DNA of 64,000 nucleotides from a virus. The DNA is taken from the IMG/VR virus record IMGVR_UViG_3300027668_000010, positions 1 to 64,000 of that record; one strand, written 5' to 3'. The notes under the pieces are model-generated. The model ran no database searches, was not told the DNA's origin, and saw only the letters and a list, made by a program, of their open reading frames with translations. Below are positions 970 through 31,566 of this stretch, one piece after another; the stretch's first letter is position 1, and each line of letters opens with the position of its first letter. The translations under genes were made by a program, and so were the position numbers.

Positions 970-1224
970 ATGCAAGAACGAAAAAGTAACTTTAAAAAAG
1001 TCCGTAGAGATGATATGGAAGTAATGGGTAATGCAATGGCAGTGAAAGTCGTTAACGGTCAAATTGAACCAGCTCTTAAATTATGGAAACGTAAGATGAA
1101 AGATAGTGGTAAATTAGATGAAGTTAAAGATAGACGAGAATTCATAAAACCATCAGCAGTTAATCGAAGAAAACGTGCAGAGGCTATACGAACTCAATGG
1201 CACAGAACTCAAGAAGATAAGTAA
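970..1224 (+). CDS. rpsU: Phage-encoded 30S ribosomal protein bS21
   Basis: VKVVNGQIEPALKLWKRKMKDSG..EVKDRREFIKPS..RRKR matches the bS21 signature (ALK.FKR...G...E.R.R..F.KPS); located beside head genes. Confidence 0.9.
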   Translation: MQERKSNFKKVRRDDMEVMGNAMAVKVVNGQIEPALKLWKRKMKDSGKLDEVKDRREFIKPSAVNRRKRAEAIRTQWHRTQEDK

Positions 1225-1375
1225 TGAGTACAATATTAGTGTTTTTATTTATACTACACTATTTATTGTAAATTGTGATACCACCTCCCAATAGGTGGTT
1301 AACGTTATTTTATATAAACAATTATATTAAGATTTACAATAATCTTATTTCCCCAAAAAATTTAGGAGAATTATT

Positions 1376-2347
1376 ATGGCAAGAAAAGACTTGTTATCAG
1401 AAGCAATTGCTGATGCTAAGGCTGTGAAAGAAACAGCAATGGCCAATGCAAAATTAGCTTTGGAAGAGGCATTCACTCCAAAACTTCAATCAATGATATC
1501 TGCGAAGCTAGCAGAAGAAGCTGAAGAAGAAATGGAAGAAGAAGAAACTGAAGAAGCGTATCATTCTGAAGAAGCTGAAGTAGAAGAGTACAAAGAAGCA
1601 GACATGGATTCTGAAGAAGAAGAAATGGAAGAAGCTGAAATGGATTCTGAAGAAGAAGCAGAAACGGAAGAAGAAGAAATGGAAATGGATTCGGAAGAAG
1701 AAATGGAAATGGATTCGGAAGAAGAAATGGAAATGGATTCTGAAGAGGATGAAGATGAATTAGATTTAGAATCTATCATTAGAGAACTTGAAGATGAAAA
1801 CGAAATGGATTCGGAAGAAGAAATGGAAATGACTGAAGAAGAAGAAATGGAAATGGATTCGGAAGAAGAAGTGACTGAAGAAGAAGAAGAAGAAATCGAT
1901 TTGGATGAAGTTATCAGAACATTGAAAGAAATGGAAGATGGTGACGAAGAAGAAGAATCGATGACTGAAGCTGAAGAAGAAGATGAAGATATGGCAGGTG
2001 AATTGGAAGAAGCTTATACAACTATAAAAAGTTTACAAACTACTATCAACGAAGTTAACCTATTGAACGCTAAACTTCTTTACACTAACAAATTATTCAG
2101 AACATTTGATTTAAATGAAAATCAAAAAGTAAAAGTTCTTGAAAACTTTGATAGAACTTCATCAGTAAGAGAAGTTAAGTTAGTATTTTCAACATTAGCT
2201 GAAAATCTTAACGTAGCTAAGAAAACAAAAGTTGTTGTTAGAGAAGGTTATGCTTCTAAAGCAACAAAAAGTTCTGCACCTAAGAAAATAATTTCTGAAG
2301 GTAATGAAATGGCCGCTCGCTGGAAAAAGCTTGCTGGTTTAAATTAA
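1376..2347 (+). CDS. Prohead core scaffolding protein (T4 gp22-like)
   Basis: Extremely acidic low-complexity centre, coiled-coil C-terminus, directly upstream of MCP; AGGAG SD at 1364-1368. Confidence 0.8.
   Translation: MARKDLLSEAIADAKAVKETAMANAKLALEEAFTPKLQSMISAKLAEEAEEEMEEEETEEAYHSEEAEVEEYKEADMDSEEEEMEEAEMDSEEEAETEEEEMEMDSEEEMEMDSEEEMEMDSEEDEDELDLESIIRELEDENEMDSEEEMEMTEEEEMEMDSEEEVTEEEEEEIDLDEVIRTLKEMEDGDEEEESMTEAEEEDEDMAGELEEAYTTIKSLQTTINEVNLLNAKLLYTNKLFRTFDLNENQKVKVLENFDRTSSVREVKLVFSTLAENLNVAKKTKVVVREGYASKATKSSAPKKIISEGNEMAARWKKLAGLN
1600..1870 (+). repeat. Coding tandem repeats (E-M-E-M-D-S-E-E, 24-bp unit)
   Basis: gaaatggaaatggattcggaagaa repeated inside the scaffold gene. Confidence 0.85.
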
Positions 2348-2377
2348 TTTTTAAATAAATAAAAACGGAGAATAAAC

Positions 2378-4024
2378 ATGGATTTAAAAAACATCCTTAG
2401 TGAAGGTTCTTCTCATACCGCTAGATTGTCAGAAGCTACAAGAGCTTTGGCAGGGAAATGGGAAAAAACTGGTCTTTTAGAAGGAATTGACAACGAAGTT
2501 GAAAAAGCAGGCGTTGCAACACTTTTAGAAAACCAAGCAAGACAATTAGTAAAAGAAGCATCTTCTACTGGAACAGCCGCAAACGGTGAAGAATGGGCTG
2601 GAGTAGCTCTACCATTAGTAAGACGTATCTTTTCTGAAATAGTTGCTAAAGATTTCGTATCTGTACAACCAATGAACTTACCATCAGGTCTAGTATTTTA
2701 TCTAGATTTCAAATATGGTACTGCTCAACCAGGTTTTGCAACAGGTGCTGGAAAAGATTCACAACTTGATTCTGTATTCGGTGTTACCGATACTACTGCA
2801 GATGCATCTGGTGGACTTTATGGTGCTGGAAGATTTGGTTATACAATCAATGACCAAGTTACTGCAACTCAATTGAGTTCATCAACTTCAGCAACAGCTG
2901 CAAATAAATTTGCAACTGGTTCAGCTGCATCAGCTGCTACATGGAATTATGATACTGCATTTAGTTCATCTTACCATACGAAGTTTAACGCAACACTACC
3001 AACTGTATATACAATTGCCGTTCCTACTGCATCTATGCCAGGTTTAGACCTTAAAGGTATTAGAGCATTTAGAATTATTGGTACAGATGTTTCTGACCAA
3101 TTCCCACAATTCGCTGTATTAGATGGTGGAGATGTTAGATTTGTAGTAGAAGGAAGTGCAGTACATAATGATAGTATTACAGTTAAGTATCACAAACAAC
3201 CAACTGATATTACTCGTGGTGATTTTGAAGCTACTTCAACTGCTAATCCTGAAGTTGATGTTGATATTCCAGAATTAAATGTTGAAATGAAATCAATTCC
3301 AATCGTTGCTAAGACACGTAAGTTGAAAGCACAATGGACTCCTGAATTCGCTCAAGATTTGAACGCTTATCATAGTATCGATGCAGAAGCTGAATTAACT
3401 TCTATGTTATCAGAATATATCTCACAAGAGATTGATTTTGAAATCTTAGATATGTTGATTACTGATGCTAAGACTACTGGATATTGGTCAACGCAAGTTG
3501 GACGTGAATGGAATGGTACAGCATTTGCTGATTATTCTTCTACTGCAGCTGCAGCTAGTGCATTCGGACAGGGAGCTTGGTTTCAAACTCTTGGAACAGT
3601 TATCGCTGGTGTATCTAATAAGATTCATCAAAAAACACTTAGAGGTGGAGCTAATTTCATAGTTGTATCTCCAGATGTTGCAACGATAATTGAATCTATT
3701 CCAGGTTATGCTAGTGGTGCTGACAACGGTGATGCACAATTTGCATTCGGTGTTCAGAAGATTGGTGCTTTGAATAGCAGATTTACTGTATATAAGAATC
3801 CTTATATGAAAGAGAACGTAATACTAATGGGTTATAGAGGAAATCAATTCCTTGAAACTGGCGCTGTTTATGCACCATATATTCCACTTATTATGACTCC
3901 TTTAGTATATGACCCTAAAAACTTCACTCCACGTAAAGGTGTTATGACACGTTACGCTAAGCAAATGCTAAGAGGTGAGTTCTACGGAAAAGTATACGTT
4001 GATTCATTAAACAAAATTCAGTAA
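2378..4024 (+). CDS. Major capsid protein (T4 gp23-like)
   Basis: LLENQ, PLVRR, VSVQPMNLPSGLVFYLD, AKTRKLKAQWTPEFAQDL..H.IDAEAEL, YAPYIPL, GVMTRY motifs. Confidence 0.97.
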   Translation: MDLKNILSEGSSHTARLSEATRALAGKWEKTGLLEGIDNEVEKAGVATLLENQARQLVKEASSTGTAANGEEWAGVALPLVRRIFSEIVAKDFVSVQPMNLPSGLVFYLDFKYGTAQPGFATGAGKDSQLDSVFGVTDTTADASGGLYGAGRFGYTINDQVTATQLSSSTSATAANKFATGSAASAATWNYDTAFSSSYHTKFNATLPTVYTIAVPTASMPGLDLKGIRAFRIIGTDVSDQFPQFAVLDGGDVRFVVEGSAVHNDSITVKYHKQPTDITRGDFEATSTANPEVDVDIPELNVEMKSIPIVAKTRKLKAQWTPEFAQDLNAYHSIDAEAELTSMLSEYISQEIDFEILDMLITDAKTTGYWSTQVGREWNGTAFADYSSTAAAASAFGQGAWFQTLGTVIAGVSNKIHQKTLRGGANFIVVSPDVATIIESIPGYASGADNGDAQFAFGVQKIGALNSRFTVYKNPYMKENVILMGYRGNQFLETGAVYAPYIPLIMTPLVYDPKNFTPRKGVMTRYAKQMLRGEFYGKVYVDSLNKIQ

Positions 4025-4054
4025 TCATTAGATTATAGAATTTATACTTAATCT

Positions 4055-4085
4055 AAAAGGGCTTACTTCGGTAGGCCCTTTTTTT
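4055..4085 (+). terminator. Intrinsic terminator after MCP
   Basis: AAAAGGGCTTAC-TTCG-GTAGGCCCTTTTTTT. Confidence 0.9.
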
Positions 4086-4154
4086 ATGCCTTAAATGTTG
4101 TAATAAAAAATGAATTGATATTTATACTAAAGGTTATTTAAGATAGGATTGTAT

Positions 4155-4814
4155 ATGCAGGAAAACGTAGAAAAAAAAGCACCCAAAGGGAATATTAAAT
4201 TTTCAATTACATTATCAGATGAACAAAAAACATCAAAAGCACAAATACTCAATCACCCATTTAGTTTTATAATAGGACAAGCTGGTAGTGGTAAAACTTT
4301 ATTAGCATGTCAGGTTGGATTGGATATGTTTTTTAAAAGAACTGTGAATAAAATAGTGGTTACTAGACCAACTGTATCAAATGAAGATAATGGATTTCTT
4401 CCAGGAACATTAGAAGAAAAAATGGAGCCCTGGTTAGTACCAATTAAATCGAATATGAGAAAGGTTTATAACAAGCCGGCTATATTAGATAAAATGATGG
4501 TAGATGAGCAAATTGAATTAGTATCATTATCACATTTTAGGGGAAGAACGTTTGAAAACTCCATAGTTATAGTAGATGAGTTTCAAAATTTAACTAAACA
4601 ACAACTTCTTATGGTGTTAGGTCGTGTAGGTAAAGGTTCTACTATGATATTATGTGGTGACCCACAACAAATTGATTTAAAATTCAGGAATGATTCAGCA
4701 ATACATGAAGTTCCTAAATTAAAAAATTCAAAATGGGTTTACGATGTTGTATTAAAGGATAACCATAGACATGAATCTTTAAATGATATTTTAAGATTAT
4801 TAACAGAATATTAA
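4155..4814 (+). CDS. phoH: PhoH-family ATPase
   Basis: GQAGSGKT P-loop, VTRP, GFLPGTLEEKMEPW, RGRTF, DEFQN, GDPQQID; ATG 4155 preferred over TTG 4149. Confidence 0.95.
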   Translation: MQENVEKKAPKGNIKFSITLSDEQKTSKAQILNHPFSFIIGQAGSGKTLLACQVGLDMFFKRTVNKIVVTRPTVSNEDNGFLPGTLEEKMEPWLVPIKSNMRKVYNKPAILDKMMVDEQIELVSLSHFRGRTFENSIVIVDEFQNLTKQQLLMVLGRVGKGSTMILCGDPQQIDLKFRNDSAIHEVPKLKNSKWVYDVVLKDNHRHESLNDILRLLTEY

Positions 4815-4853
4815 ATTGTATATATTTATTATAAACATTAATCAAAGGTAATT

Positions 4854-5246
4854 ATGTCAGCTGGAAAATATTCATTTACAATAGAGCAGGGGGCTACCCT
4901 CCAATTTGAAATACAATATAAAGATTCTAATAACATTCCTGTGGATTTAACTTCATATAACGGAAGATTACAAGTTAGACCAACAGTTGGTTCATCTGAT
5001 GTGTATTTAACGTTATCAAGTACCTTACAATCAGATAAGACCGGATTAAACTTTAGTGGTTCAAATGGAAGTACACCGTTATCATCAGGTTCAATTGGAA
5101 TATACGTTTCAGCAGTAACTTCATCAGTATTAGATTTCACAACTGCACATTATGATTTGGAAATCTACTCTGGTAGTGGTAATTCTGAGTATGTGGTTAG
5201 GTTATTGGAAGGTAAGGTAAACTTATCTAAAGAGGTAACACGATAA
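4854..5246 (+). CDS. Virion fibre-anchor/adaptor protein (BppU-N-like beta sandwich)
   Basis: IEQGAT...PVDLT.Y..R.QVR...YDLEI...RLLEG.V pattern typical of proteins preceding phage fibres. Confidence 0.55.
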   Translation: MSAGKYSFTIEQGATLQFEIQYKDSNNIPVDLTSYNGRLQVRPTVGSSDVYLTLSSTLQSDKTGLNFSGSNGSTPLSSGSIGIYVSAVTSSVLDFTTAHYDLEIYSGSGNSEYVVRLLEGKVNLSKEVTR

Positions 5247-8200: not shown

Positions 8201-11177
8201 TCTATTCTCAGTAAATGATATATCTGGTATTCCGATTTTTGAAGTATTCTCTGATAATACAGTTAAAATAGGAACTCATAATCAAGAAGGTATTGTAGTA
8301 ACTGGGAGTAATATAGTAATAACAGGTTCATTATTTGTTAGTGGTTCATTATATGGAGATGGTTCTCAACTAACCTCTCTTCCAACCCAAACTGCAAATG
8401 ATTTTACAACAACATTAAAAAACAAATTAGATGCCATTGAAGCATCAGCAGATGTAACCGATGCAACTAACGTTGTTGCTGCACTTGATACATTGGGTGT
8501 AATAAGTGGCTCAACGCAATTTGATACATTAACTCTTCCATTTACAGGTTCATTTACAGGTTCATTTGCTGGAGATGGTAGTGGGTTAACTTCAGTTCCA
8601 ATTCCAAGTGGAACGATAAGTGGTTCGGCTCAATTCGATACATTAACTCTCCCATTTACAGGTTCATTCACTGGGTCTTTCTCTGGCGATGGAAGTGGGT
8701 TAACCTCTCTTCCAACTCAGACTGCAAATGACTTTACAAATACTCTAAAAAACAAATTAGATGCCATTGAAGCATCCGCAGATGTAACAGATGCAACTAA
8801 CGTTGTTGCTGCACTTGATACATTGGGTGTAATAAGTGGTTCGGCTCAAGTCTTAGCACAATTACCTGATGGAACGATAAGTGGTTCAACTCAATTCGAT
8901 ACATTAACTCTTCCATTTACAGGTTCGTTTACTGGGTCTTTCTCTGGCGATGGAAGTGGATTAACCTCTCTTCCAACCCAAACTGCAAATGATTTTACAA
9001 CAACATTAAAAAACAAATTAGATGCCATTGAAGCATCCGCAGATGTAACCGATGCAACTAATGTATTATCTTCTTTAGTTGGGAGTGAATTGGTAGTTAA
9101 AACAATAACGGCTGAAGAATATGTAGTAAGTTCATCGGTAACTCATATGACTACATCATTCAGTAGCGGCTCCACAATATTTGGTGATGATATATTAGAT
9201 ACACATCAATTTACAGGTTCATTATTTGTTAGTGGTTCAATACATAATGTTGGTAGTGTAACCTCATCATTTTTTATAGGAGATGGTTCAGCACTAACCT
9301 CACTACCTACTCAAACTGCAAATGATTTCACAACAACATTAAAAAATAAATTAGATGCGATTGAAGCATCCGCAGATGTAACAGATGCAACTAATGTAGT
9401 TGCGGCACTTGATACATTGGGTGTAATAAGTGGTTCAACACAATTCGATACATTAACCCTTCCATTTACAGGTTCATTTACTGGGTCTTTCGCTGGAGAT
9501 GCTAGTGGGTTAACTTCAGTTCCAATTCCAAGTGGTACAATAAGTGGCTCAACGCAATTCGATACATTAACACTCCCATTTACTGGGTCTTTTACAGGCT
9601 CATTTGTTGGTGATGGAAGTGGATTAACCTCTCTTCCAACCCAAACTGCTAATGACTTTACAAATACTCTAAAAAGCAAATTAGATGCAATTGAAGCATC
9701 CGCAGACGTAACCGATGCAACTAATGTAACTTCCGCAGGTGCATTAATGGATTCGGAAGTTACAAATCTAGCATTAGTAAAAGCATTAGCAAGTGGTATT
9801 TCCGATGGAAATGTTTTAACGGCTAATGATGCAGTAGCAGACGATGATTTTTTAAGAATCAACGGAACGGAAGTAGAAGGTAGAACTGTAGCTCAAGTAT
9901 TAAGTGATTTGAATGTTGAAGCTGGTGCAGATGTAACAGATGCTACTAATGTAGTAGCAGCACTTGATACATTGGGTGTAATAAGTGGTTCGGCTCAATT
10001 CGATACATTAACTCTCCCATTTACAGGTTCATTCACTGGGTCTTTTACTGGAGATGGAAGTGGGTTAACCTCTCTTCCAACTCAGACTGCAAATGACTTT
10101 ACAAATACTCTAAAAAGCAAATTAGATGCAATTGAGGCATCCGCAGACGTAACAGATGCTACTAATGTAGTAGCAGCACTTGATACGTTAGGAGTTATAA
10201 GTGGCTCAACGCAATTTGATACACTTACACTTCCATTTACAGGTTCATTTACAGGTTCATTTGTTGGTGATGGGAGTGGATTAACCTCTCTTCCAACCCA
10301 AACTGCAAATGACTTTACAAATACTCTAAAAAGCAAATTAGATGCAATTGAAGCATCAGCAGATGTAACCGATGCTACTAATGTAACCGCTGCTGGGGCA
10401 TTAATGGATTCGGAAGTTACAAATCTCGCATTAGTAAAAGCATTAGCAAGTGGTGTTTCAAATGGAAATGTTTTAGTTGCTAACGCAGCAGTAGCAGATA
10501 ATGATTTCTTAAAAATTGATGGAACATCTGTTGAAGGTAGAACTGTAGCTCAAGTATTAAGTGATTTGAATGTTGAAGCTGGTGCAGATGTAACCGATGC
10601 AGCAAATGTATTATCATCATTGCCAGCTGGGGTAGTATCATCATCAACATTTCCATTTACAGGTGATGCTCAAATCACAGGTTCATTAATACTATCGGGT
10701 TCGGCTGGTACTGTATTCGAAGTAATAGGTTCATCAGGTTCACTATTCGAAATTACTGACTCATTTGAAGGTACATTATTTTCAGTTGCAGATATATCAG
10801 GTATTCCACAATTTGGAGTAACCGATGCTGGTGTCGCAACCATTGGCTCTACACCCGTATCAATATATACAACTGCACAAATTGCATCAACCCAAGCCAC
10901 AACAAACGAATCCGTATATACGTTATCATCATCCTCATTTGATGGTGCTTGGTTTGATTATACTATAATTAGTTCTTCTAATATGAGAGCTGGAAACGTT
11001 ATGAGTATTTGGGAAGCTGGAACTACGAATATTAATTTTACAGAAACGACAACAACCGATATTGGTGATACGACAGGTGTTGTTATATCAACAGTAATCA
11101 CCGGGTCGGAAATAGCACTAAGAGTTAATACACCAACTGATAAATGGAAGATTAAAACAATCGTAAGAAGCATATAA
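5247..11177 (+). CDS. Long repetitive fibre protein (1976 aa; tail, neck or head fibre)
   Basis: Short collagen-like G-x-x run, about 15 copies of KLDAIEASADVTD and many FTGSFTGSF.GDGS.LT units. Confidence 0.8.
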   Translation: MASKKVNITNTDNKVTVTNSNNKIEVIDTNVASNIEVTRPVTTIVEVKSPGPQGAVGITGPSGSQGIQGTAGVDGGGVFTLIEGGIIYATTSSLQISGSLYVSGSYFGDGSNLTGVGGAAGTISGSAQIIAHLPVGTISGSTQFDTLTLPFTGSFTGSFAGDGSQLTSIPSQTANDFTTILKNKLDAIEASADVTDATNVLANLPAGTISSSAQLPSGIISGSTQFDTLTLPFTGSFTGSFAGDGSQLTSIPSQTANDFTTILKNKLDAIEASADVTDATNVLANLPAGTISSSAQLPSGIISGSTQFDTLTLPFTGSFTGSFIGDGSLLTSLPTQTANDFTNTLKSKLDAIEASADVTDTTNVTSAGALMDSEVSALALIKGLTAASISGSFTSVSSSIASDVATNTAKVTNVSTNLTKTTATAQITINSSDGDNVVIAEASDSIAGLMSTTHHDKLDGIEALADVTDTTNVLSSLVGSELVVKTITAEEYVVSSSVTHMTTSFSSGSTIFGDDILDTHQFTGSLFVSGSLYGDGSNLTGVGGAAGTISSSAQLPTGIISGSTQFDTLTLPFTGSFTGSFNGDGSGITGISGASDENFTSTLKNKLDGIEASSDVTDTANVLANLPAGIISGSTQFNTLTTPFTGSFTGSYFGDGSNLTGVGGAAGTISSSAQLPSGIISSSAQLPSGIISGSTQFDTLTLPFTGSFTGSFAGDGSLLTSLPTQTANDFTNTLKTKLDAIEASADVTDTANVLANLPAGIISGSTQLPIGIISGSTQFDTLTLPFTGSFTGSFAGDGSGLTSLPTQTANDFTNTLKTKLDAIEASADVTDATNVVAALDTLGVISGSAQVLAQLPDGTISGSTQFDTLTLPFTGSFTGSFVGDGSGLTSLPAQTANDFTTTLKNKLDAIEASADVTDAANVLSSLPAGVVSSSAFPLGVNITGGAIITGSTSIYRSGSIGDTTIFSVEGGLGTLFSVTDELTGSLFSVNDISGIPIFEVFSDNTVKIGTHNQEGIVVTGSNIVITGSLFVSGSLYGDGSQLTSLPTQTANDFTTTLKNKLDAIEASADVTDATNVVAALDTLGVISGSTQFDTLTLPFTGSFTGSFAGDGSGLTSVPIPSGTISGSAQFDTLTLPFTGSFTGSFSGDGSGLTSLPTQTANDFTNTLKNKLDAIEASADVTDATNVVAALDTLGVISGSAQVLAQLPDGTISGSTQFDTLTLPFTGSFTGSFSGDGSGLTSLPTQTANDFTTTLKNKLDAIEASADVTDATNVLSSLVGSELVVKTITAEEYVVSSSVTHMTTSFSSGSTIFGDDILDTHQFTGSLFVSGSIHNVGSVTSSFFIGDGSALTSLPTQTANDFTTTLKNKLDAIEASADVTDATNVVAALDTLGVISGSTQFDTLTLPFTGSFTGSFAGDASGLTSVPIPSGTISGSTQFDTLTLPFTGSFTGSFVGDGSGLTSLPTQTANDFTNTLKSKLDAIEASADVTDATNVTSAGALMDSEVTNLALVKALASGISDGNVLTANDAVADDDFLRINGTEVEGRTVAQVLSDLNVEAGADVTDATNVVAALDTLGVISGSAQFDTLTLPFTGSFTGSFTGDGSGLTSLPTQTANDFTNTLKSKLDAIEASADVTDATNVVAALDTLGVISGSTQFDTLTLPFTGSFTGSFVGDGSGLTSLPTQTANDFTNTLKSKLDAIEASADVTDATNVTAAGALMDSEVTNLALVKALASGVSNGNVLVANAAVADNDFLKIDGTSVEGRTVAQVLSDLNVEAGADVTDAANVLSSLPAGVVSSSTFPFTGDAQITGSLILSGSAGTVFEVIGSSGSLFEITDSFEGTLFSVADISGIPQFGVTDAGVATIGSTPVSIYTTAQIASTQATTNESVYTLSSSSFDGAWFDYTIISSSNMRAGNVMSIWEAGTTNINFTETTTTDIGDTTGVVISTVITGSEIALRVNTPTDKWKIKTIVRSI
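5658..6190 (+). repeat. Near-perfect 246-bp tandem duplication inside fibre gene
   Basis: Unit starts ataagtggttcaacgcaatttg at 5658, 5904 and 6150. Confidence 0.9.
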
Positions 11178-12557: not shown

Positions 12558-12579
12558 AAATCTACCATATTTATAATAA
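12549..12579 (+). repeat. 31-bp direct repeat copy 1 containing the late-promoter box
   Basis: ggattataaaaatctaccatatttataataa; one mismatch to 18585-18615. Confidence 0.85.
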
Positions 12580-18352: not shown

Positions 18353-18580
18353 ATGGCAAATATAATAAGTAATCCAATCCAACCCATCTGGTATTTGGCA
18401 TATAACCAATCGGATGATATATGGCACTATGGTGAAGTTCAATCAAATCAAACTATGACAACCCATCAACCGATATTAGAACAATTCGAAACTGAGGAAT
18501 TATTAGAAGCTAGAGTAGATAGTTTTAAGGGTGATGGGTGGTATGCCACCGAAAATAGTATAACTGAATACCCAATATAA
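18353..18580 (+). CDS. Hypothetical protein
   Basis: ATG 18353 with CGGA upstream, preferred to the 18308 start. Confidence 0.55.
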   Translation: MANIISNPIQPIWYLAYNQSDDIWHYGEVQSNQTMTTHQPILEQFETEELLEARVDSFKGDGWYATENSITEYPI

Positions 18581-18584
18581 AATT

Positions 18585-18615
18585 GGATTATAACAATCTA
18601 CCATATTTATAATAA
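18585..18615 (+). repeat. 31-bp direct repeat copy 2 containing the late-promoter box
   Basis: ggattataacaatctaccatatttataataa. Confidence 0.85.
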
Positions 18616-18631
18616 ACAATAGGAGATATTA

Positions 18632-19786
18632 ATGGCAGTACAAATTCCAATATGGCCAGGTTCATCATCATTCTTTCCAGATATGACACCGTTTGGACAT
18701 TATGATAATGATTATGAGTTTCAGCAAGATGCAGATAAAGTATCATCTTGGTGTGCCAAACGATTGGGTTATCCAATTGTTGATATTGAATTACAAGACA
18801 TTAACTTCTATACTTGCTTTGAAGAAGCAGTTACAGAATATTCAACACAAGTCAATCAATTTAACATTAGAGAGAATCTTTTAAATTTAAAAGGCTCTCC
18901 GACTGGTTCTAACATTTCACAAACTCAACTTGATGGAAATATGGGCGGGTTAGTATCACTTGCAAAGGATTATGGTTCGGAAGTAGGTAGTGGTGGTAGA
19001 TTAACATATTATACAGGCTCATTCAGTACTGTGGCAGGTCAGCAAGTTTATGATTTAACTACATCATCAGTTGCTTCATTAGAAAGTGGTACTGCTGGAG
19101 TTGATAAATTTGAAATTAAGAAGATGTTACACGATGCACCACCTGCTATGGTAAGATACTTTGACCCATTAGCCGGTGCAGGTGTTGGTTCTGATAATCT
19201 AATGGATGCATTTGGATGGGGTAACTATTCTCCAGGCGTTTCATTTATGATGCAACCACTTTATAGCGATTTACTTAAAGTTCAAGCAATTGAGTTCAAT
19301 GATATGATTCGTAGGTCACAATATGGATTCGATATTCAAAATAATAGAATTAGAATATTCCCAATCCCAACAGTAGCATACAAAATACACTTTCATTACA
19401 TTTTAGAGGATGAACGAAGTAATGGTATTATTTCTAATTCAGTAGTATCTGATTATTCAAATGTACCTTATGATAGGATTACTTATACAAAAGTTAATCA
19501 TGTAGGAAAGCGTTGGATTCATAAATACTCATTAGCATTAGCAAAAGAAATGTTAGGTGCAGTAAGAGCTAAGTTTAGTTCAGTACCAATTCCTAACTCA
19601 GAAATAACATTAGATGGGGCTGATTTAAGAGGTGAAGCATCAGCAGAAAAAGAAATATTAATTTCAGAATTAAGAGAAAACTTAGAAGCAACTTCTCGTA
19701 AATCATTATTAGAAGCCCAAAAGGATGAATCTGAATTTATGGAATCAACTCTAAGTCGAATCCCTAGAGCTGTTTACATAGGATAA
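18632..19786 (+). CDS. Neck protein (T4 gp13-like)
   Basis: RLGYPIVDIEL, W..KY.LALAKEMLG.VR.KF, ITLDG..L..EA. Confidence 0.8.
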   Translation: MAVQIPIWPGSSSFFPDMTPFGHYDNDYEFQQDADKVSSWCAKRLGYPIVDIELQDINFYTCFEEAVTEYSTQVNQFNIRENLLNLKGSPTGSNISQTQLDGNMGGLVSLAKDYGSEVGSGGRLTYYTGSFSTVAGQQVYDLTTSSVASLESGTAGVDKFEIKKMLHDAPPAMVRYFDPLAGAGVGSDNLMDAFGWGNYSPGVSFMMQPLYSDLLKVQAIEFNDMIRRSQYGFDIQNNRIRIFPIPTVAYKIHFHYILEDERSNGIISNSVVSDYSNVPYDRITYTKVNHVGKRWIHKYSLALAKEMLGAVRAKFSSVPIPNSEITLDGADLRGEASAEKEILISELRENLEATSRKSLLEAQKDESEFMESTLSRIPRAVYIG

Positions 19787-21170: not shown

Positions 21171-21470
21171 ATGGCAGAAATAAAACAAGTTACAGAAAAG
21201 CAAGTAATTAAGTTTCAAGAAGAAGAAATAAAGAAAATACACAAATTTAGAGATGATTATTCAGATATTACCGCTAAATTAGGTGAATTAGAGATTGAAT
21301 TGTTAGTTTTAGCTAACCAAAACAATCAGTTGATGACTTATAAAGAAGAACTTCAACAATCATATATAAAAATAAGAGAAAGTGAAATGACACTAGCAGC
21401 AGACTTAAAAGAAAAGTATGGTGATGGTGAATTTGATATAAATACAGGTATTTTTACACCGAAACAATAA
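21171..21470 (+). CDS. Hypothetical coiled-coil protein
   Basis: LGELE...L.EKYG.G..DI.TG.F; preceded by late box 21130-21138. Confidence 0.6.
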   Translation: MAEIKQVTEKQVIKFQEEEIKKIHKFRDDYSDITAKLGELEIELLVLANQNNQLMTYKEELQQSYIKIRESEMTLAADLKEKYGDGEFDINTGIFTPKQ

Positions 21471-21540
21471 CTATCACCGTTTCCAATTTTTAGAAGTATT
21501 TATTAGTATATAAACAATAAGAAATTAATAGGAGAATAAA

Positions 21541-23928
21541 ATGGCAGAAAGAATAGTAAGTCCTGGAGTATTTACCAGAGAAAAGGACTTGTCGTTTCTA
21601 CCCCAAGGAATTGGTGAAATTGGTGCAGCATTAATAGGGTCAACTGTAAAAGGACCTGCGTTTGTACCAACGACCGTACAATCGTATCAAGAGTTTCAAC
21701 AAGTATTCGGAGGATTGACAGAAGATTCATACCTACCTTATACTGCACAAGCTTATTTAGAAGATGCAGGTACAGCAACAATCGTTAGGGTATTGGGACA
21801 AGATGGGTATACTTTAGAAAACCCAATAGCATTACAAATTTCATCATCAGCGCTTGGTATTAAAACTGTAGCAGTATTACACCCAACAACGGCTGTAACA
21901 TCTGATGTTGATGTATTTAGTGGACCACTACCTGTATCTGAAAACACAGGTTCGGAGTTTTTATTAACAATTACAGGTTCAACTGTAACAGGAAAGGTAT
22001 TTTCCTCTTCATTAAATCCAACAAACGATAACTACATAACTAAAGCATTAGGATTCTCCCCAAGAGGTTCTGAAAACGCATATCTTTTATCAAACTTTAA
22101 AATATTTCAATCAGAATCAATCGCAACAGGCGAAACTGTAGCAGTAACTGCAGTAACCAGTTCTGATATTGATTATACTAAAGCATACACAGAAGCTGCA
22201 ACACCATTTATTACATCTCAAAAAGTTGGTGGAAACACTACTAATTTGTTTAAGTTCCATACATTATCACATGGTACTGCTACAAACTATGAGTTTAAAA
22301 TTGGTATTCAAGATATTAAAATAGCAGGTTCAGTACCTGGCTCTGAATATGGTTCATTTACAGTAGTTGTACGAAGAGTTGACCAGGACAAAATTGTTGG
22401 TTCACCATTCGTAGGAGTAGTTGATTCGGATATCAGACCAAATTTAGTTGAAACGTTTCAAGGATGTAACTTAAACCCTGATTCTCCAAACTATATAGCT
22501 AGAGTAATTGGTGACAAATATATTACAGTTGATGCAAATGGTAAATTATCAACAAATGGTGATTATAACAACCTATCAGCAAATATTAGAGTTGAAGTAG
22601 CTACCGCAGTTGGTAATGGTGCAGTTGATGTATCATTAGTACCATTCGGATTCGCAGCATTGCAAAATCCTTACGGAACAGCATTTACATTACCAAATCC
22701 AGCATTTGTAGCAAATCAACAAATCAATAGTTCATATAACGCTAAAAAGTTTTTTGGATTTAATTTTGATTTATCTAAAACGGATAACGTAAATTATTTA
22801 TCAGTATTTCCTGATTCCGCAACAGCAACAGCTGGAACGGCATTTTACTTAGGTGATTATAACCAAGAAAGTGGAGCTAATTTCCCATCATCTGCAGCTG
22901 CAAATAGTGGTTCTATTTCATTATCAGATGTAACTACATCAGTTAACTCTCGTAAATTTATAGTACCATTTCAAGGTGGTTTTGATGGATTCAAACCAAA
23001 TAGAATTGTAAGTACTACTGGTGATATTACTGCTGGAAATACGCAAGGATATGATTGTTCATCAAATACAGCGACTGGAACGGTAGCATTTAGAAAAGCT
23101 ATTAACTCAGTATCTAATCCTGATGAATTTGATATTAATATGTTAGTATTGCCAGGGTTAATCCACAGATTACATTCATCTGTTACTACATTCGCTAAAG
23201 ATATGTGTGAAGACAGACAGGATGCATTCTTTATAATGGATGCTGGAGCATACGCTGATTCAATATCAACAATTGTAAACACAGTTCAACCATTTGATTC
23301 AAATTATGTAGCATCTTATCACCCATGGGTTAAGATACTAAATTCAGATAAAAACAAACCTGTATGGGTTCCACCATCTGTAGTTCTACCGGGTGTTATT
23401 GCATTTAACGATTCAGTAGCAGCCGAATGGTTCGCACCAGCTGGTTTAAATCGTGGTGGATTAACTAACGTTATTGAAGCTAAGAGTAGATTGACTAGAG
23501 TTGAGAGAGATGCACTTTACGAAGGTAGAGTAAATCCTATCGCAACGTTCCCTGGTCAAGGAGTTACTGTATTTGGACAAAAAACCTTACAAGCTAAACC
23601 ATCCGCATTGGATAGAATTAATGTAAGAAGATTATTAATCGCAGTTAAGAAGTTTATCGCATCTTCAACTCGTTACTTAGTATTTGAAAATAATACAGCA
23701 GCGACACGAAATCGTTTCTTATCAATCGTAAATCCTTATTTGGAATCAATCCAACAAAGACAAGGTTTATTCGCATTTAGAGTAGTTATGGATGATACCA
23801 ACAACACTCCTGATGTAATTGATAGAAACATTATGGTAGGTGAGATTTTCTTACAACCTGCAAAAACAGCAGAATTCATTGTACTTGATTTCAACGTACT
23901 ACCGACTGGCGCTGCATTCCCATCTTAA
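21541..23928 (+). CDS. Contractile tail sheath protein (gp18-like)
   Basis: SPGVFTREKDLS, WFAPAGLNRG, RD.LY..RVNPI, FGQKTLQ, LDRINVRRL, LVFE.N. Confidence 0.96.
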   Translation: MAERIVSPGVFTREKDLSFLPQGIGEIGAALIGSTVKGPAFVPTTVQSYQEFQQVFGGLTEDSYLPYTAQAYLEDAGTATIVRVLGQDGYTLENPIALQISSSALGIKTVAVLHPTTAVTSDVDVFSGPLPVSENTGSEFLLTITGSTVTGKVFSSSLNPTNDNYITKALGFSPRGSENAYLLSNFKIFQSESIATGETVAVTAVTSSDIDYTKAYTEAATPFITSQKVGGNTTNLFKFHTLSHGTATNYEFKIGIQDIKIAGSVPGSEYGSFTVVVRRVDQDKIVGSPFVGVVDSDIRPNLVETFQGCNLNPDSPNYIARVIGDKYITVDANGKLSTNGDYNNLSANIRVEVATAVGNGAVDVSLVPFGFAALQNPYGTAFTLPNPAFVANQQINSSYNAKKFFGFNFDLSKTDNVNYLSVFPDSATATAGTAFYLGDYNQESGANFPSSAAANSGSISLSDVTTSVNSRKFIVPFQGGFDGFKPNRIVSTTGDITAGNTQGYDCSSNTATGTVAFRKAINSVSNPDEFDINMLVLPGLIHRLHSSVTTFAKDMCEDRQDAFFIMDAGAYADSISTIVNTVQPFDSNYVASYHPWVKILNSDKNKPVWVPPSVVLPGVIAFNDSVAAEWFAPAGLNRGGLTNVIEAKSRLTRVERDALYEGRVNPIATFPGQGVTVFGQKTLQAKPSALDRINVRRLLIAVKKFIASSTRYLVFENNTAATRNRFLSIVNPYLESIQQRQGLFAFRVVMDDTNNTPDVIDRNIMVGEIFLQPAKTAEFIVLDFNVLPTGAAFPS

Positions 23929-24518: not shown

Positions 24519-24550
24519 TTCAGAATTACCGAATTATTAATAAAATTTAT

Positions 24551-25715: not shown

Positions 25716-25718
25716 TAG

Positions 25719-25745: not shown

Positions 25746-25783
25746 ACATATTTATAGATAAGTAACTTAATAAGGAATCTATT

Positions 25784-26023: not shown

Positions 26024-26047
26024 ATTATTTAATTCGGTATAATTGCA

Positions 26048-28210
26048 ATGGCAAAAAAGAATCAAGAACAAAGTGAATTTAATAAACTTCTTCAGGATGA
26101 GATTACTCTCAGAGAACTGGAGCAAGGTCTTCAAGACAAACTGCTTCAGTCTGTCAAAAATAAAGAAAGAATATCTACCAATGCTCAAATTGTTCAACAA
26201 GATTTAAACAAATCATTATTAGAATCAGTATCTACCGAAGACAAAATTGAAGCAATTAAACAAGCTCAGGATAAACTCTTAGATGAAGCCGTTTCCAAAG
26301 GTAAGGCAATAAACGCAGAGCATTACAAAAGATTAGATACAGCAAAACAACTGTTGGTTAAATCCAAAGAAGAAGCAGATACTACCAAAACACTTAAAGA
26401 TGGATTAAAGGGTGCAAAAGATGAATTATTAGGTTCACTTGGACCAGCTGGCCAATTAGTAAGTCAAATGTTAGCCGCTGGGACTGCTGTAGCTATAATG
26501 GTGGTAGCTCTCACAGCTGCACTAAAGTTTATAATCGATATGGTTAGGCGTGGTATTGAATTAAACCAAACATTGGGTATGAGTGCTAAAGATTCAACTG
26601 CACTTGAAGCTAATATTATGGGAGCTAGCTACTCTATGGAGGGGTTACTTTATTCAACTGAGGAAATGCGAGCATCTGCTATGGCTTTAGTAGACACTAT
26701 GGGTAGGGTACAAGTTCCATCACAATTAATAACAGATGCAACTAGACTTACAAAGTTATTAGGTGGGGATGACGCTTCTGGTACATCATTAGCAAGGTCA
26801 CTCAAAAACGCTGGGCATAATCAAACTAAATTAACGGATGATATTGAAGCAATGGCAACCTCAATGGGTATGACTGCGGGTCCCGCTATGGAAATGCTAG
26901 TTCTGAATCAAATGAAGCTCGGTAGTTTATCTCACGAACAAGCACTAGCAGAAGCAAGAAAAGGATTAGAAATAAAAAAGCAAGGTTTAGATGTAAAGAA
27001 AATGAACGCAATGATGCGGGAAGCTTTAGATATTGAAGGTAGTATGCGAAGTGCAATGAAGCTCAGAATTATGAGTGGAAAAGAAATAAACTTTAATGCA
27101 ATAAATCAAGCAAAACTCGCAGATGATGAAGCGGGGCTAGCAAAAGCACTCAATGACCAAATTGCTCTAATGGGTCCTGGGTTTGAAACCAACCATAGGA
27201 TGCAGCAGTTAATGGCAGATGGTTTAAATCTATCAGTCGAAGAGATGAATAATATGCGTAACGCTACAGCAGAACAAGCAACACTTGCAGCTGAATTAGT
27301 AGAACTTCAAAAAACAAATAAAGATGCCACAGAAGAAACATTACTGGCTCAAAAAGAAAGTACTGAAGAAACTGGAAATGGTATAATGGCTATGATAGGA
27401 GGAATGCCAATGTGGGCTAAAGTTACCGCTGCAATTGTAGGTATTGGTGCAGCCCTAATCGTTGTAGCAATGCTAATCCCATCAGTAGGTGCAGGTATAA
27501 TTTCCATTACCGGAGCAGTTGGCTCGGGAATCGCATCAATAGGTGCAGGGATAGGTACTGCATTATCATCAATAGGTTTAGGAATTGCAGGATTAGCAGC
27601 CGGTTCTGTTGGAGTTCCCGTCTTATTAGCATTAACACTTGCTGTAATTGGGTTCGGTGCGGCACTTTACTTAGCTACACCTGCAATTGTAGAAATCGGT
27701 GGGGTACTTAAAACTGTATTCGAAGGAATTGGTTTAATAGTTACCAATATAGGAAATGTTATAATAGGTATATTCTCAGAAATACCACCAATCATTACAG
27801 CAGTATCAGATGGACTTGTTAATATGATGAATGTAGTAACTATGGATAATGTAGGTGCTATGTTACTATTAGGACCCGCTCTTATGGGTGTTGCATTCGG
27901 ATTGGCTGCAATTGGTATGATGGGGATACCTGGGTTACTAGCTCTTACAGGGTTAGGAGCAGTAACTGTTCTACTTGCACCTAGTTTAATGGGAATTGCT
28001 GATAGTATTGGTGATATGATGGGTGGTGGTTCAGATGATGTTGATACAAATTCAGATAATTCGGATTCTAAGTTAATAGATGCTATTAATGGATTACGTG
28101 GTGATATTCAGTCTCAACCTATACTAATAAGTGTAGATGGTAAAGTAGTTTCTGAAATAACAAAAATTCAAAGTAGACAGGGTGTATCTAAAAACGTATA
28201 TAGGAAATAA
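26048..28210 (+). CDS. Tape-measure-like protein
   Basis: Long helical Ala/Leu/Met-rich protein with Gly-rich hydrophobic C-half; located after tube and chaperone genes. Confidence 0.7.
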   Translation: MAKKNQEQSEFNKLLQDEITLRELEQGLQDKLLQSVKNKERISTNAQIVQQDLNKSLLESVSTEDKIEAIKQAQDKLLDEAVSKGKAINAEHYKRLDTAKQLLVKSKEEADTTKTLKDGLKGAKDELLGSLGPAGQLVSQMLAAGTAVAIMVVALTAALKFIIDMVRRGIELNQTLGMSAKDSTALEANIMGASYSMEGLLYSTEEMRASAMALVDTMGRVQVPSQLITDATRLTKLLGGDDASGTSLARSLKNAGHNQTKLTDDIEAMATSMGMTAGPAMEMLVLNQMKLGSLSHEQALAEARKGLEIKKQGLDVKKMNAMMREALDIEGSMRSAMKLRIMSGKEINFNAINQAKLADDEAGLAKALNDQIALMGPGFETNHRMQQLMADGLNLSVEEMNNMRNATAEQATLAAELVELQKTNKDATEETLLAQKESTEETGNGIMAMIGGMPMWAKVTAAIVGIGAALIVVAMLIPSVGAGIISITGAVGSGIASIGAGIGTALSSIGLGIAGLAAGSVGVPVLLALTLAVIGFGAALYLATPAIVEIGGVLKTVFEGIGLIVTNIGNVIIGIFSEIPPIITAVSDGLVNMMNVVTMDNVGAMLLLGPALMGVAFGLAAIGMMGIPGLLALTGLGAVTVLLAPSLMGIADSIGDMMGGGSDDVDTNSDNSDSKLIDAINGLRGDIQSQPILISVDGKVVSEITKIQSRQGVSKNVYRK

Positions 28211-28212
28211 CT

Positions 28213-31200
28213 ATGGCATTAAAAGATTTAAAATCAGACCTTTCAAAGTTTAGGATGCCAAAGAAAGACCCGTTGGAATCTAAAGAAAGAGTAACTGTTA
28301 ACAAAAACTTAAACAAAACACCTTTAAGTTCTATGGTAGAATCAGCACCAAAGATTCCACGTTCTCAAACAACTACTAATAAAGAGGGTGTTAATCCAAA
28401 AAATATGGATAACACATCTAAGTTCTTAGGTGAAACCACACCTACACCATCTAATAACTCTGAAAAGTTTTTAGGTGAAACCACTACTAAACCATTAAGT
28501 TTAGAAGAACGTTACTTAGGTGAAACAACACCAACCAATTCAGATAACACATCTAAGTTCTTAGGGGAAACGACTCCTACTAAATTTGATAATCAATCTA
28601 GCTTCTTAGGTGAAACAACTCCTAATAAATTTGATAATAACGAAAACTTCTTAGGATTAACAACCCCAACTCTATCTAATAGGGAATCGAAGTTTTTAGG
28701 TGAAACCACTCCTAATTCAGCAGATAACACATCTAAGTTTTTAGGTGAAACCACTCCTAATTCAGCAGATAACACATCTAAGTTTTTGGGTGAAACAACA
28801 CAAACTCCATCTAATAACACATCTAAGTTTTTAGGTGAAACAACACAAACTCCATCTAACAATAAATCTAGGTTCTTAGGGGAAACAACACCCACCGAAG
28901 TTAACTTTATTACAGATATTCATGCTAAAGGGTTTACATCAAAACAAAAGCATAAATCACCATCTAAGTTCAATGGTATAAACAAACCCCAAAGTTCATT
29001 CGATGGGAATTCATCAGTATATGGTAAACTTAAAACTTCTAATTTTATAACAGATACTCATTCAACTGGGTTTTCTTTAAATAAATTTCATAAAGCTCCA
29101 TCCGAATTTACTGGTGTAGGAAAAACGCAAGATATATGGAATAATAACTCATTATTTGGTAATATAGGAACTGTTGATTTCTTTCCAAATGACGGAAAAT
29201 CACAATCACGCGGGTTTACATTAAATCAAAAGCATAAATCACCATCACAGTTTACTGGGATTTCAAACGAACAAAATAAGTGGGATACTGATTCATCTGA
29301 ATACAGTAGTTTTTCTAATTATATACATGATGATTTATCATCAGCACCTGGTTATGGTAAGTTTAAATTACAAAAACAATCATCAGGTCAAAAGCAAAGT
29401 TACAACCAAGACAGCACCTATTATATGGATTCATTCCAAAGAGGTGATTTTGCATTAGATTTGACTAAAGGTAAAATATCCAAACTACAAGAGATGCGGA
29501 ATTCACCATCGTTCTTAGATGAGATGTATTCTAAATTTAATCTAAGAGATGATGCACATAATACTGGAATGACTGCATTTGACCATCCACTAATTCTTAG
29601 AGGTATACAACGTAAGGGTAAGAAGGGAAACGAACCTCAAAACTTTGGTATACCAGGTACTAACATTGATTTAGATGATGGACTTATCAGAGGTGGTATA
29701 ATAACATCAACTACAAGAGCAGTTATAGATGCAATTAGACTTGGTAAGTGGATGGTATCCATCAAAGGGTTATTATGGGGTGTTAAGCAATTTGGATTAC
29801 AACAATCAAATCCAAATGTGGAAAAGATTGGTGGAATCAGACGTACAAAAATGTGGACACCTATAAACACATTAGCATCTGCAATTGGTGTACAGATTGG
29901 ATTACACCCAAATAGACATGGATTCACACCATTTGATTTAAATGATGGTTCATATGAATCGGTACAAAAGCAAAAAGCAATAGCACATAGGGCTGGTAAG
30001 TTAATAATAGGTGCACCAATAGTTGGTAATAGGTTAGTTGGATTATGGAAAGATTCGTTTTCTACTTTTTACGGGACATCAACCTCATCTACCTTTACAG
30101 GCTCACCTCATTCAAGGCTTCAAGGAATAGGTGGACCTAATTCAGTATATGGATTAATTCCAAACGGTAAATTTCCTAGACGTGATGAAGATACCCGATA
30201 TGATGTATTCTACGGTAATACTGAGGATAATCGGTATGGTACATTCGTTCAGACTATCACACCTAATCCGGGATTTACCGATAGTATACCTGAACCAGCA
30301 GCTGTAAACCAAAATAAAGCAGAACGGTTAAAAAAATTAGTTGAATCTGGAAACATTAGGAAGTTCGCAGGTGGAGGCGCACCATTACAAGATGCTAAAG
30401 GCCGGAACTATGATGCAACAAATGCAGCCGGCGATGATATTGGCAAAAATATACCCGGCTCAGAAGTAATCAACGATTACGAAACCATTGCATATGGTGA
30501 TATGCCCAATAGAGTTTCCGGGGAAACATCAGATATAGATTTCAGAAGTTTGTTAACAAAAGATAGTAATGAATCTAATCGAGCCAAAAAAGAAAACTAT
30601 ACTGAAAAAAACATAAACGCAAGAGTTAATTTTGGAAATCCTGGTAAATTAGGTACAGGTGAAAATAGAGTAGATTATGATAATACAGACCCAAAAAAGG
30701 CAGGATTTCTAGATAGATTTGATAAAGTAAATGCATCTGATGTAGGCGATGCTGTCTTAAATGATTTAATTCACTTACAGTTCAAAACATCTGATAAGAC
30801 GAGAATTCAATTCAGAGGAACGGTTTCAGGAATAACCGATACATTCTCACCATCATGGGATTCTATAAAGTACAATGGTAGAGCAGACCAAGCATATCAA
30901 TACAAAACATTCGAACGAAGTTTATCATTTGCCTTTAAAATTTATGCAACCTCCCGTATTGAAATGATGCCTATATATAAAAAACTATCTCAGTTATCAA
31001 AAATGACTATGCCGGTATATAATGGTGACCCTGGATATAGTGGACAACTAATTAATTTCCGTTTGGGTAGTTTGTTTAACAAACGACAAGCATTCATCGA
31101 ATCATTATCATATTCAATGTCAGATGAAACCCCATGGGACCTCGCATTAGATAATAACGTAGGTGAATTACCAATGGGTATTGATGTATCAATAGGATTA

Positions 31201-31260
31201 AAAATTCTAGGAGAAACTCCATCATCTACAATGGAAAAAGTTTATGATACAGTATTTTAG
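28213..31260 (+). CDS. Baseplate/tube-initiator-like protein with N-terminal repeats
   Basis: C-terminal FRG.VSGITD.FSPSW....YNGRA....Y..FERSLSF.F.I domain; 15-aa repeats at N-terminus. Confidence 0.55.
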   Translation: MALKDLKSDLSKFRMPKKDPLESKERVTVNKNLNKTPLSSMVESAPKIPRSQTTTNKEGVNPKNMDNTSKFLGETTPTPSNNSEKFLGETTTKPLSLEERYLGETTPTNSDNTSKFLGETTPTKFDNQSSFLGETTPNKFDNNENFLGLTTPTLSNRESKFLGETTPNSADNTSKFLGETTPNSADNTSKFLGETTQTPSNNTSKFLGETTQTPSNNKSRFLGETTPTEVNFITDIHAKGFTSKQKHKSPSKFNGINKPQSSFDGNSSVYGKLKTSNFITDTHSTGFSLNKFHKAPSEFTGVGKTQDIWNNNSLFGNIGTVDFFPNDGKSQSRGFTLNQKHKSPSQFTGISNEQNKWDTDSSEYSSFSNYIHDDLSSAPGYGKFKLQKQSSGQKQSYNQDSTYYMDSFQRGDFALDLTKGKISKLQEMRNSPSFLDEMYSKFNLRDDAHNTGMTAFDHPLILRGIQRKGKKGNEPQNFGIPGTNIDLDDGLIRGGIITSTTRAVIDAIRLGKWMVSIKGLLWGVKQFGLQQSNPNVEKIGGIRRTKMWTPINTLASAIGVQIGLHPNRHGFTPFDLNDGSYESVQKQKAIAHRAGKLIIGAPIVGNRLVGLWKDSFSTFYGTSTSSTFTGSPHSRLQGIGGPNSVYGLIPNGKFPRRDEDTRYDVFYGNTEDNRYGTFVQTITPNPGFTDSIPEPAAVNQNKAERLKKLVESGNIRKFAGGGAPLQDAKGRNYDATNAAGDDIGKNIPGSEVINDYETIAYGDMPNRVSGETSDIDFRSLLTKDSNESNRAKKENYTEKNINARVNFGNPGKLGTGENRVDYDNTDPKKAGFLDRFDKVNASDVGDAVLNDLIHLQFKTSDKTRIQFRGTVSGITDTFSPSWDSIKYNGRADQAYQYKTFERSLSFAFKIYATSRIEMMPIYKKLSQLSKMTMPVYNGDPGYSGQLINFRLGSLFNKRQAFIESLSYSMSDETPWDLALDNNVGELPMGIDVSIGLKILGETPSSTMEKVYDTVF
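28411..28900 (+). repeat. 11 coding copies of a 45-bp/15-aa unit (NTSKFLGETTPxxxD)
   Basis: Visible in both translation and DNA. Confidence 0.9.
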
Positions 31261-31269
31261 AGGTAGATT

Positions 31270-31566
31270 ATGAATAGATATGAAAATATAACAATAGTAA
31301 AGACAGAAGAAGGTAAGAGATATCGGAAATCAGTCCAATACCCTGCGATAGAACGTAATCTAAATGATATTTATATCATAGGTGCTAGACACGATAGGTT
31401 AGATAATCTTGCATTCCAATATTACGAAGATGCAGCCTTATGGTGGATTATAGCAAGAGCAAATAATATAGGAAAAGGTAATCTAACAGTTCCAATCGGA
31501 GTACAGATTAGAATACCACACGATTATTTAACAATTGTAAGAGAATATAACGAATTAAACGAATAA
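31270..31566 (+). CDS. LysM-like baseplate wedge protein (gp53/tail-X-like)
   Basis: DRLDNLAFQYY.D..LWWIIA.AN...G.QIRIP. Confidence 0.8.
   Translation: MNRYENITIVKTEEGKRYRKSVQYPAIERNLNDIYIIGARHDRLDNLAFQYYEDAALWWIIARANNIGKGNLTVPIGVQIRIPHDYLTIVREYNELNE

Follow-up and report, generated by a model that had tools for sequence, protein, structure and literature searches.

Our analysis of a 64,000-nucleotide stretch of viral DNA (IMG/VR record IMGVR_UViG_3300027668_000010; hereafter the window) has shown that it belongs to a phage that encodes its own ribosomal protein bS21 (gene rpsU) and that carries Shine-Dalgarno (SD) motifs mainly in front of its virion genes. The window is the first 64 kb of one virus contig of 100,504 bp (34% G+C), on which all genes lie on the + strand. 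Based on these observations, we predict, with a probability of roughly one in two, that the phage bS21 re-tunes the host 30S subunit so that SD-led virion mRNAs gain in translation, and that this would act as a boost more than as an all-or-none switch. The genes on which this prediction is built are as follows.

970-1224, + strand: rpsU, phage bS21 of 84 amino acids, recognized by Pfam PF01165, by alignment to solved chains and by close homologues.
532-31566, + strand: virion block, with an SD in 18 of 28 genes; it includes PhoH (4155), tail-fibre and lectin-like genes, the adaptor (18632), the sheath (21541) and the tube (24030).
1376-2347, + strand: putative head scaffold gene, named by position only, with the SD AGGAG and a 7-nt spacer.
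2378-4024, + strand: major capsid protein gene (phrog_138, E 4e-75), with the SD GGAG at 2367-2370.
34208-64000, + strand: replication and nucleotide-metabolism block, whose leaders are rich in A, poor in G and without SDs, as for example that of the DNA polymerase gene at 51281.

To score SD motifs, the 20 nt that precede each start were paired with CACCUCCUUU, and a stricter core test asked for GGAG, GAGG or AGGA ending 3-11 nt before the start. The virion block had a mean dG of -4.46, compared with -1.51 for the other 104 genes of the contig, of which 14 had a core motif (Mann-Whitney p 1.4e-6; Fisher odds ratio 11.6, p 2.5e-7; permutation p <1e-5). The contrast that the initial annotation had drawn between SD-rich virion genes and SD-poor other genes is therefore present across the contig. 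G was found at -10 and -9 in 57% and 50% of virion-block leaders and in 12% of the rest, the latter leaders being A-rich and poor in G (~12%, compared with 19% for the genome). The background, given by ATGs that are not starts, was 6% in the core test. In the virion block the motifs lay at distances of 4-11 nt from the start; the modal spacer was 7 nt and most spacers were 6-8 nt. All six strong SDs that had been listed from the window were found 6-8 nt before an ATG (AGGAG at 1364, 18621 and 21530; GGAG at 2367, 24019 and 24629), and the commonest form was a weak AGGA or TAGGA (9 of 18 sites). Since many of the sites fall within the coding sequence of the preceding gene, they appear to be tied to the start codon and not to be intergenic signals. 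Taken together, the motifs complement the anti-SD core, stand at the expected position, exceed background and are kept in orthologues, as functional SDs do.

The SD pattern is not a simple copy of the promoter pattern. When genes were divided by their nearest upstream promoter, 22 of 59 late and 8 of 72 early genes had an SD; the late/early split that had been proposed was thus detectable, but it was weaker than the split by virion block, and the virion or abundant-protein class separates the genes better. Outside the virion block SDs precede the ribonucleotide reductase (RNR) small subunit, GroEL, an endolysin-like gene and a few unknowns, and the glycosylation genes at 61331-68778, downstream of a late-type promoter, are without SDs. 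Based on the weaker promoter contrast and on these two groups of genes, the SD signal marks abundant or late-acting proteins and not every late transcript. The individual exceptions named beforehand were also found, with no SD at 21171, 31570 and 33461 and an SD at 40855 and 41344; the latter two and the RNR small subunit (46690) are the members of the replication block with a conserved SD. PHROG matches confirmed the adaptor, sheath, tube, PhoH and DNA polymerase genes as well as both RNR subunits (46690 and 48000), and further along the contig they identified GroEL (92964) and the endolysin-like gene (80459). The putative scaffold had no PHROG match. The GroEL gene (contig 92964-94577, or 8964-10577 of locus L006; phrog_5725, E 5e-154) has AGGA 7 nt before its start; three relatives have an orthologue, and two of them retain this SD.

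Comparison with related phages links the SDs to the possession of bS21. A pattern search with close bS21 homologues gave 80 viral loci, a search with the capsid protein of Flavobacterium phage immuto gave 80 further loci, two more bS21 queries gave 18 loci, and 37 genome-bin contigs came from the capsid alignment; the capsid lineage was compared over 162 loci, including 51 that confidently lack bS21. After the genome-bin contigs and the 484-kb phage LR756508 had been added, 69 loci had both bS21 and a capsid-gene SD, 51 had neither, one had bS21 without the SD, and none had the SD without bS21. The capsid SD is thus retained in all 69 SD-positive relatives. It occurs in none of immuto and 73 bS21-less relatives, for which the mean dG was +1.5, compared with -6.3 in 63 bS21 loci. 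In the bS21 loci inspected rpsU was always SD-less and the scaffold, capsid and tail genes had strong SDs; terminase and portal genes were SD-less in most of them. The within-genome split was repeated in four complete or near-complete relatives and was significant in three (G001-G003, p 8e-4 to 6e-3). Gene by gene, the SD state was conserved across diverged genomes (Spearman 0.55, p 4e-8) at a capsid identity of only 60-84%. No phage bS18 or bS6 was found in five genomes. A somewhat more tentative proposal is that a whole clade of Bacteroidota phages turns SD-blind host ribosomes into SD-reading ones late in infection by means of its own bS21. The virion SDs would then be a phage-private signal that host mRNAs lack, host rpsU excepted, and sister lineages that lost bS21 would have lost every SD.

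The rpsU product matched Pfam PF01165 (Ribosomal_S21) with an E-value of 1.9e-12 and 47.1 bits at a cut-off of 27, its residues 25-76 covering profile positions 2-54 of 55, and it also matched at least 30 solved bS21 chains. In the HMMER alignment to chain 9i5v_9 there was no gap between KPS and AIYVK/AIRTQ, so that Arg74 falls on Tyr54 and Thr75 on residue 55. This bears out the earlier reading of the protein as FIKPS...EAIRTQ with Arg at the Tyr position; as Thr75 occupies the place of Ile55, both pocket-contact residues are replaced, and the Bacteroidota-type sequestering signature (Tyr54 with a hydrophobic residue 55) is absent. Bacteroidota-type proteins start at an MLIIPVKEG-like strand without an extension, and the window bS21 has 24 extra N-terminal residues. 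Close homologues keep both this extension and the Arg, and Arg74 is invariant in the nine closest. An AlphaFold2 (AF2) model (pLDDT 80) predicts a helical fold with helices at 32-46, 48-53 and 61-83, the last forming a long C-terminal helix on which R74, W77 and H78 share one face. The leader of rpsU (aataaaacaattatATG) has no SD and no potential for pairing with the anti-SD (dG +2.1), so the description of the gene as SD-less also held.

The initial annotation had treated the replacement of Tyr by Arg as the determinant of the SD pattern, and this part of the claim has to be given up, as the same pattern is seen in relatives whose residue 54 is Tyr, Phe, Leu or Lys. Tyr or Phe, in some cases within a host-like flavobacterial ending AIYIQ, is found in loci L028-L034, L082-L086, L150, L165, L166 and L202-L219, all with the same SD layout. 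Leu is found in L226, L227, L247 and L251 and Lys in Mel-JY01, a recorded Microcystis phage, again with the same layout and an SD-less rpsU. Arg74 is thus rejected as the determinant of the pattern. The N-terminal extension is not a general determinant either, since the Leu54 group lacks it and is SD-positive. Aromatic residues at position 54 are found in deeper branches of the bS21 clade, and for this reason Arg looks derived. What remains of the overall interpretation is the SD split, its conservation, the occurrence of the SDs with bS21 only and the probable Bacteroidota host.

The promoters of the contig are of two types, and the sites that the argument needs are given below.

911-919, + strand: late-promoter-like motif ATATTTATA, just 5' of rpsU, recognized by the intergenic enrichment of its motif class.
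919-956, + strand: terminator-like hairpin (919-948) and T-run, which overlaps the late motif and ends 13 nt before the rpsU ATG.
34125-34156, + strand: example of an early promoter, TTGG-N-CGTATATTTAC, of the Bacteroidota -33/-7 type; others start at 41284, 45225, 54559 and 59081.

The late-type motif, ATATTTAT[AT], has 16 of its 23 contig copies in the 5% of the DNA that is intergenic, and it is enriched in relatives too, immuto included. The early type, TTGG...N...(C/T)GTATATTT(A/G), fits the Bacteroidota -33/-7 consensus TTG-N17-21-TAnnTTTG. Written as TTG-N17-21-TAnnTTT[GA], such promoters are 10-17x denser in intergenic than in coding DNA; with the relaxed consensus the contig has 12 sites in 6.4 kb of intergenic and 17 in 94 kb of coding DNA. 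This enrichment is higher still in relatives G001 and G002, and sigma-70-type promoter sites showed no enrichment in the contig.

These promoters, together with the relatives of the phage, suggest that its host is probably a member of the Bacteroidota. The capsid protein shares 59.7% identity with its counterpart in 'Microcystis' phage Mel-JY01, 55.7% with that in immuto and 36.7% with that in Rhodothermus phage RM378; the closest cultured relatives have as hosts Flavobacterium and, as recorded, Microcystis. Bacteroidota is the commonest bin label among related contigs from metagenome-assembled genomes (MAGs; 17 of 37), although these are bin labels only and several others are plainly mis-binned, and a fragment with 97% identity sits in a Flavobacterium MAG. 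A nucleotide search against a phage database gave no match. The phage recurs in marine metagenomes from 12 studies. Relatives' contigs are 157-178 kb long, and in them rpsU is preceded by terminase, portal and protease genes, which are absent from the window contig, with its CheckV-type completeness of 53%; for these reasons it is considered a fragment. The source is an uncultured marine myovirus with a genome of ~170 kb, whose host is most likely one of the Flavobacteriia.

Previous work on such hosts provides a setting for the phage protein. Bacteroidota ribosomes have been reported not to recognise SDs, the anti-SD being held by Tyr54 and Ile55 of bS21 together with bS18 and bS6, with Tyr54 stacked on A1534 (PMC7797042). 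In F. johnsoniae, translation from strong SDs increases 1.7- to 5-fold when bS21 is lost, truncated at its C terminus or altered by Y54A, with no change in vivo for SD-less reporters; the Y54A mutant is healthy, and its strong-SD reporters gain between 70% and 3-fold in vivo and 3-fold in vitro, so that loss of the Tyr unmasks the anti-SD in part (PMC9976891). In the absence of bS21, ribosomes start more quickly on mRNA with an SD and more slowly on mRNA that has none (PMC9976891). Based on the Y54A data, a bS21 without Tyr, if bound, should loosen the anti-SD, and the proposed unmasking step is chemically plausible because bS21(Y54A) raises strong-SD translation 1.7- to 3-fold.

With this in mind, we propose the following course of events. 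The early genes would be suited to the host's SD-blind ribosomes through their Bacteroidota-type promoters and A-rich, SD-less leaders. Phage bS21 would be made late, from its late-type promoter and off an SD-less mRNA, by ordinary ribosomes, and would take the bS21 site on the host 30S. There it would not keep the 16S 3' tail in the bS21/bS18/bS6 pocket, and the anti-SD would be free to pair. The SD-led mRNAs of capsid, scaffold, adaptor, sheath and tube would then gain several-fold. SD-less mRNAs would still be translated, which is why we speak of a boost and not of an on/off switch. Arg74 and Thr75 may add to the unmasking in the subclade of the window, without being what defines the system.

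Several observations weigh against this reading. The published effects were obtained with SDs of 7 nt or longer, and the host rpsU SDs lie below -13 kcal/mol, whereas the phage SDs are of 4-5 nt. SD-positive phages differ in residue 54 and in the extension, so that the unmasking is not explained by any sequence feature of bS21. In the AF2 model Trp77 and His78 are a single helical turn away from Arg74 and could take over the stacking role of Tyr. SDs are also missing from some genes downstream of late-type promoters. Mel-JY01 carries SDs on its early genes too (42% vs 55%), and LR756508, of the same capsid lineage, has a syntenic bS21 and no SDs on late or head genes. The host itself is one that we infer. 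Finally, on the capsid tree the presence of bS21 changes only 1-2 times and the SD state 1-3 times, which leaves 1-2 independent contrasts, and a single bS21-positive, SD-positive clade was not rejected by the approximately unbiased (AU) test (p 0.195). The 69/51/1/0 table is therefore not a statistical proof of coupling, as one host shift could yield it, and a host-lineage effect could explain the co-occurrence equally well.

Such an effect is the most serious of the alternatives, though we consider it unlikely. It would mean that the hosts of the bS21 clade use SDs to some degree, that SDs mark the most expressed genes, and that bS21 is kept for another reason, such as ribosome supply or defence evasion. 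The small number of changes on the capsid tree would be expected if this were so, as would the tracking of abundance and not promoter class (terminase, portal and the late-promoter glycosylation genes are all SD-less) and the genome-wide SDs of Mel-JY01. Nevertheless, three facts argue against a simple host explanation: the early genes of five genomes are SD-poor and G-depleted, the promoters are of the Bacteroidota type, and Pelagibacter phage HTVC008M, a bS21 phage of an SD-using host that served as control, has SDs on both gene classes (44% structural vs 37% non-structural, p 0.16) and thus no split. The capsid SD was also found in 0 of 51 loci without bS21, and SD use by such hosts would run against the reported behaviour of Bacteroidota ribosomes (PMC7797042).

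Less probable still is that the SDs exploit ribosomes that carry no bS21 at all, host shut-off having depleted the loosely bound host protein late in infection and thereby freed the anti-SD, with a host-like phage bS21 buffering the pool for SD-less phage mRNAs. The initiation preferences of bS21-free ribosomes (PMC9976891) fit this proposal, many SD-positive phages retain Tyr54 like host-type bS21, and according to Chen et al. the anti-SD is blocked by phage bS21 just as by its host counterpart (PMC9723584). However, bS21-less relatives with the same kind of host never have late-gene SDs, which suggests that infection by itself is not enough for SDs to become useful; the window bS21 has, moreover, lost both pocket-contact residues. 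It is also conceivable, but very improbable, that the purine-rich motif is read not by 16S rRNA but by a translational regulator of the phage or an enzyme that processes RNA, or that it is a by-product of composition. RegA and RegB of T4-type phages act at purine-rich sites of this kind, HTVC008M encodes RegA, and a weak AGGA or TAGGA is the commonest form. Against this, the position and spacing are those of a classical SD, the sites with the strongest pairing complement the anti-SD exactly and belong to the most abundant proteins, and the motif is kept at the same genes across diverged genomes, well above the background of non-start ATGs. Re-tuning of the 30S by phage bS21 is accordingly the reading that we retain.

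Parts of this idea have precedents. The redirection of ribosomes by phage bS21 has been suggested before (PMC9723584; PMC9976891), and our literature search found no paper that ties phage bS21 to SD-led late genes. In the freshwater Bacteroidetes myoviruses of Chen et al. 2022 (PMC9723584), bS21 likewise lies among terminase, portal, protease and capsid genes, is expressed late and was proposed to replace host bS21 in favour of phage mRNAs. In contrast to the window phage, the gene there is on the opposite strand and encodes a host-like protein with an aromatic residue 54 in all 61 cases, which was inferred to keep the anti-SD blocked like the host protein; SDs were not analysed. The window phage has a co-directional rpsU, an N-terminal extension, Arg at 54 and SD-led virion genes. 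Autoregulation of rpsU in F. johnsoniae (McNutt et al. 2023, PMC9976891; Jha et al. 2021, PMC7797042) is similar in that bS21 occupancy, especially of Tyr54, sets anti-SD pairing and an SD-led mRNA is favoured. That circuit acts through one extreme SD (below -13 kcal/mol) on host rpsU, whereas the phage has an SD-less rpsU and some 20-30 other genes with 4-5-nt SDs. HTVC008M (Mizuno et al. 2019, as cited in PMC9976891) is a T4-like marine phage whose bS21 is reported there to enter E. coli ribosomes; unlike the window phage, it has an SD-using host, a bS21 gene outside the head module and SDs on structural and non-structural genes. For the bS21 paralogues of Francisella, a homologue swap has been described that alters which mRNAs are translated; these are cellular paralogues, with no phage and no anti-SD sequestration (PMC9578407).

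A broader parallel is stop-codon recoding by phages, in which the translation apparatus is altered so that late genes are read properly only afterwards; that strategy works through suppressor tRNAs or release factors and the genetic code, and not through initiation signals. bS21 is the ribosomal protein most often encoded by phages, and the sole detailed study concluded that it behaves like the host protein. If our reading is true, the clade-wide link between bS21 and SD-led virion genes in SD-blind hosts would give phage bS21 a concrete job, and would be a natural case of a virus making specialised ribosomes. It would also explain the autoregulation of host rpsU as a possible counter-measure, as McNutt et al. 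speculated. The hypothesis would become testable with existing F. johnsoniae tools. Phage bS21 and the idea of redirection were known; the Arg74 subclade, the residue-54 survey, the LR756508 exception and the HTVC008M control are added here.

Some further observations concern the exceptional relatives. The bS21 of LR756508 (L260, 9777-10013) lacks the N-terminal extension, carries Met at position 54 and ends in a long basic tail, and it is the sole case found of bS21 without SDs. The huge phages LR756504 and LR745206 (L257 and L258) have a host-like bS21 ending in AIYVQ or AIYIQ, also without an extension, and the genes up to 20 kb on either side of it are without SDs (2-4% core); a weak capsid-protein match in LR745206 (24% identity) has no SD. 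Mel-JY01 (PP395634; L001, L003 and L004) has Bacteroidota-type TTG-N17-21-TAnnTTTG promoters, 10 in intergenic and 2 in coding DNA. The host on record for this phage may merit re-examination; alternatively, its bS21 may be active as soon as infection begins.

The DNA between rpsU and the putative scaffold gene holds one more element.

1259-1375, + strand: structured leader of the gene before the capsid gene, defined by an alignment of 40 loci.

This leader consists, in order, of a promoter-like CTATTTATT (1259-1267), hairpin 1 (1280-1299), hairpin 2 (1328-1346), TTTCC, an A-rich stretch and the SD AGGAG (1364-1368). Over the 40 loci each pair of hairpin 1 has compensatory changes in 9-17 sequences, and hairpin 2 is nearly invariant, with 1-2 compensatory changes. 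The architecture of a late-type promoter, a covarying stem-loop (loop CyAAT) and a near-invariant stem-loop, TTAAGATT-N5-AATCTTA, is kept across the whole capsid lineage with or without bS21 (homologues in L007-L219, alignment A4; L001 at ~21530-21650; L002 at ~18573-18733). It had no match in Rfam. After the hairpins, bS21 phages have TTTCC, an A-rich stretch and AGGAG, and immuto has a CA-rich stretch at the same place. The leader was ruled out as a bS21-specific element, since homologous hairpins precede the same gene in immuto and Mel-JY01. The anti-SD-like CACCTCC in hairpin 1 was likewise ruled out as an anti-SD mimic, being one variant of a covarying stem that differs among relatives. 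A search for an extended-SD decoy RNA gave no standout in the 100-kb fragment, which covers ~53% of the genome and where the best complements of the 16S tail lie inside coding sequence.

The hairpin before rpsU has a fold energy of -16.6 kcal/mol (z -3.95), with 12 pairs in the terminator scan at 919-948. The late motif overlaps its 5' arm, so that transcripts started there would miss the full hairpin and upstream read-through would stop, an arrangement that could insulate rpsU expression. Elsewhere, two identical late-promoter copies, CTACCATATTTATAATAA, at 12567 and 18603 flank the region of the lectin-like/tail-fibre cassette. Lastly, two adjacent small open reading frames (54 and 48 amino acids; window 36963-37286) have 20-nt leaders, aattgtaaaatacacataag and aattgtaaaatacatataag, that are nearly identical, which suggests a local duplication.

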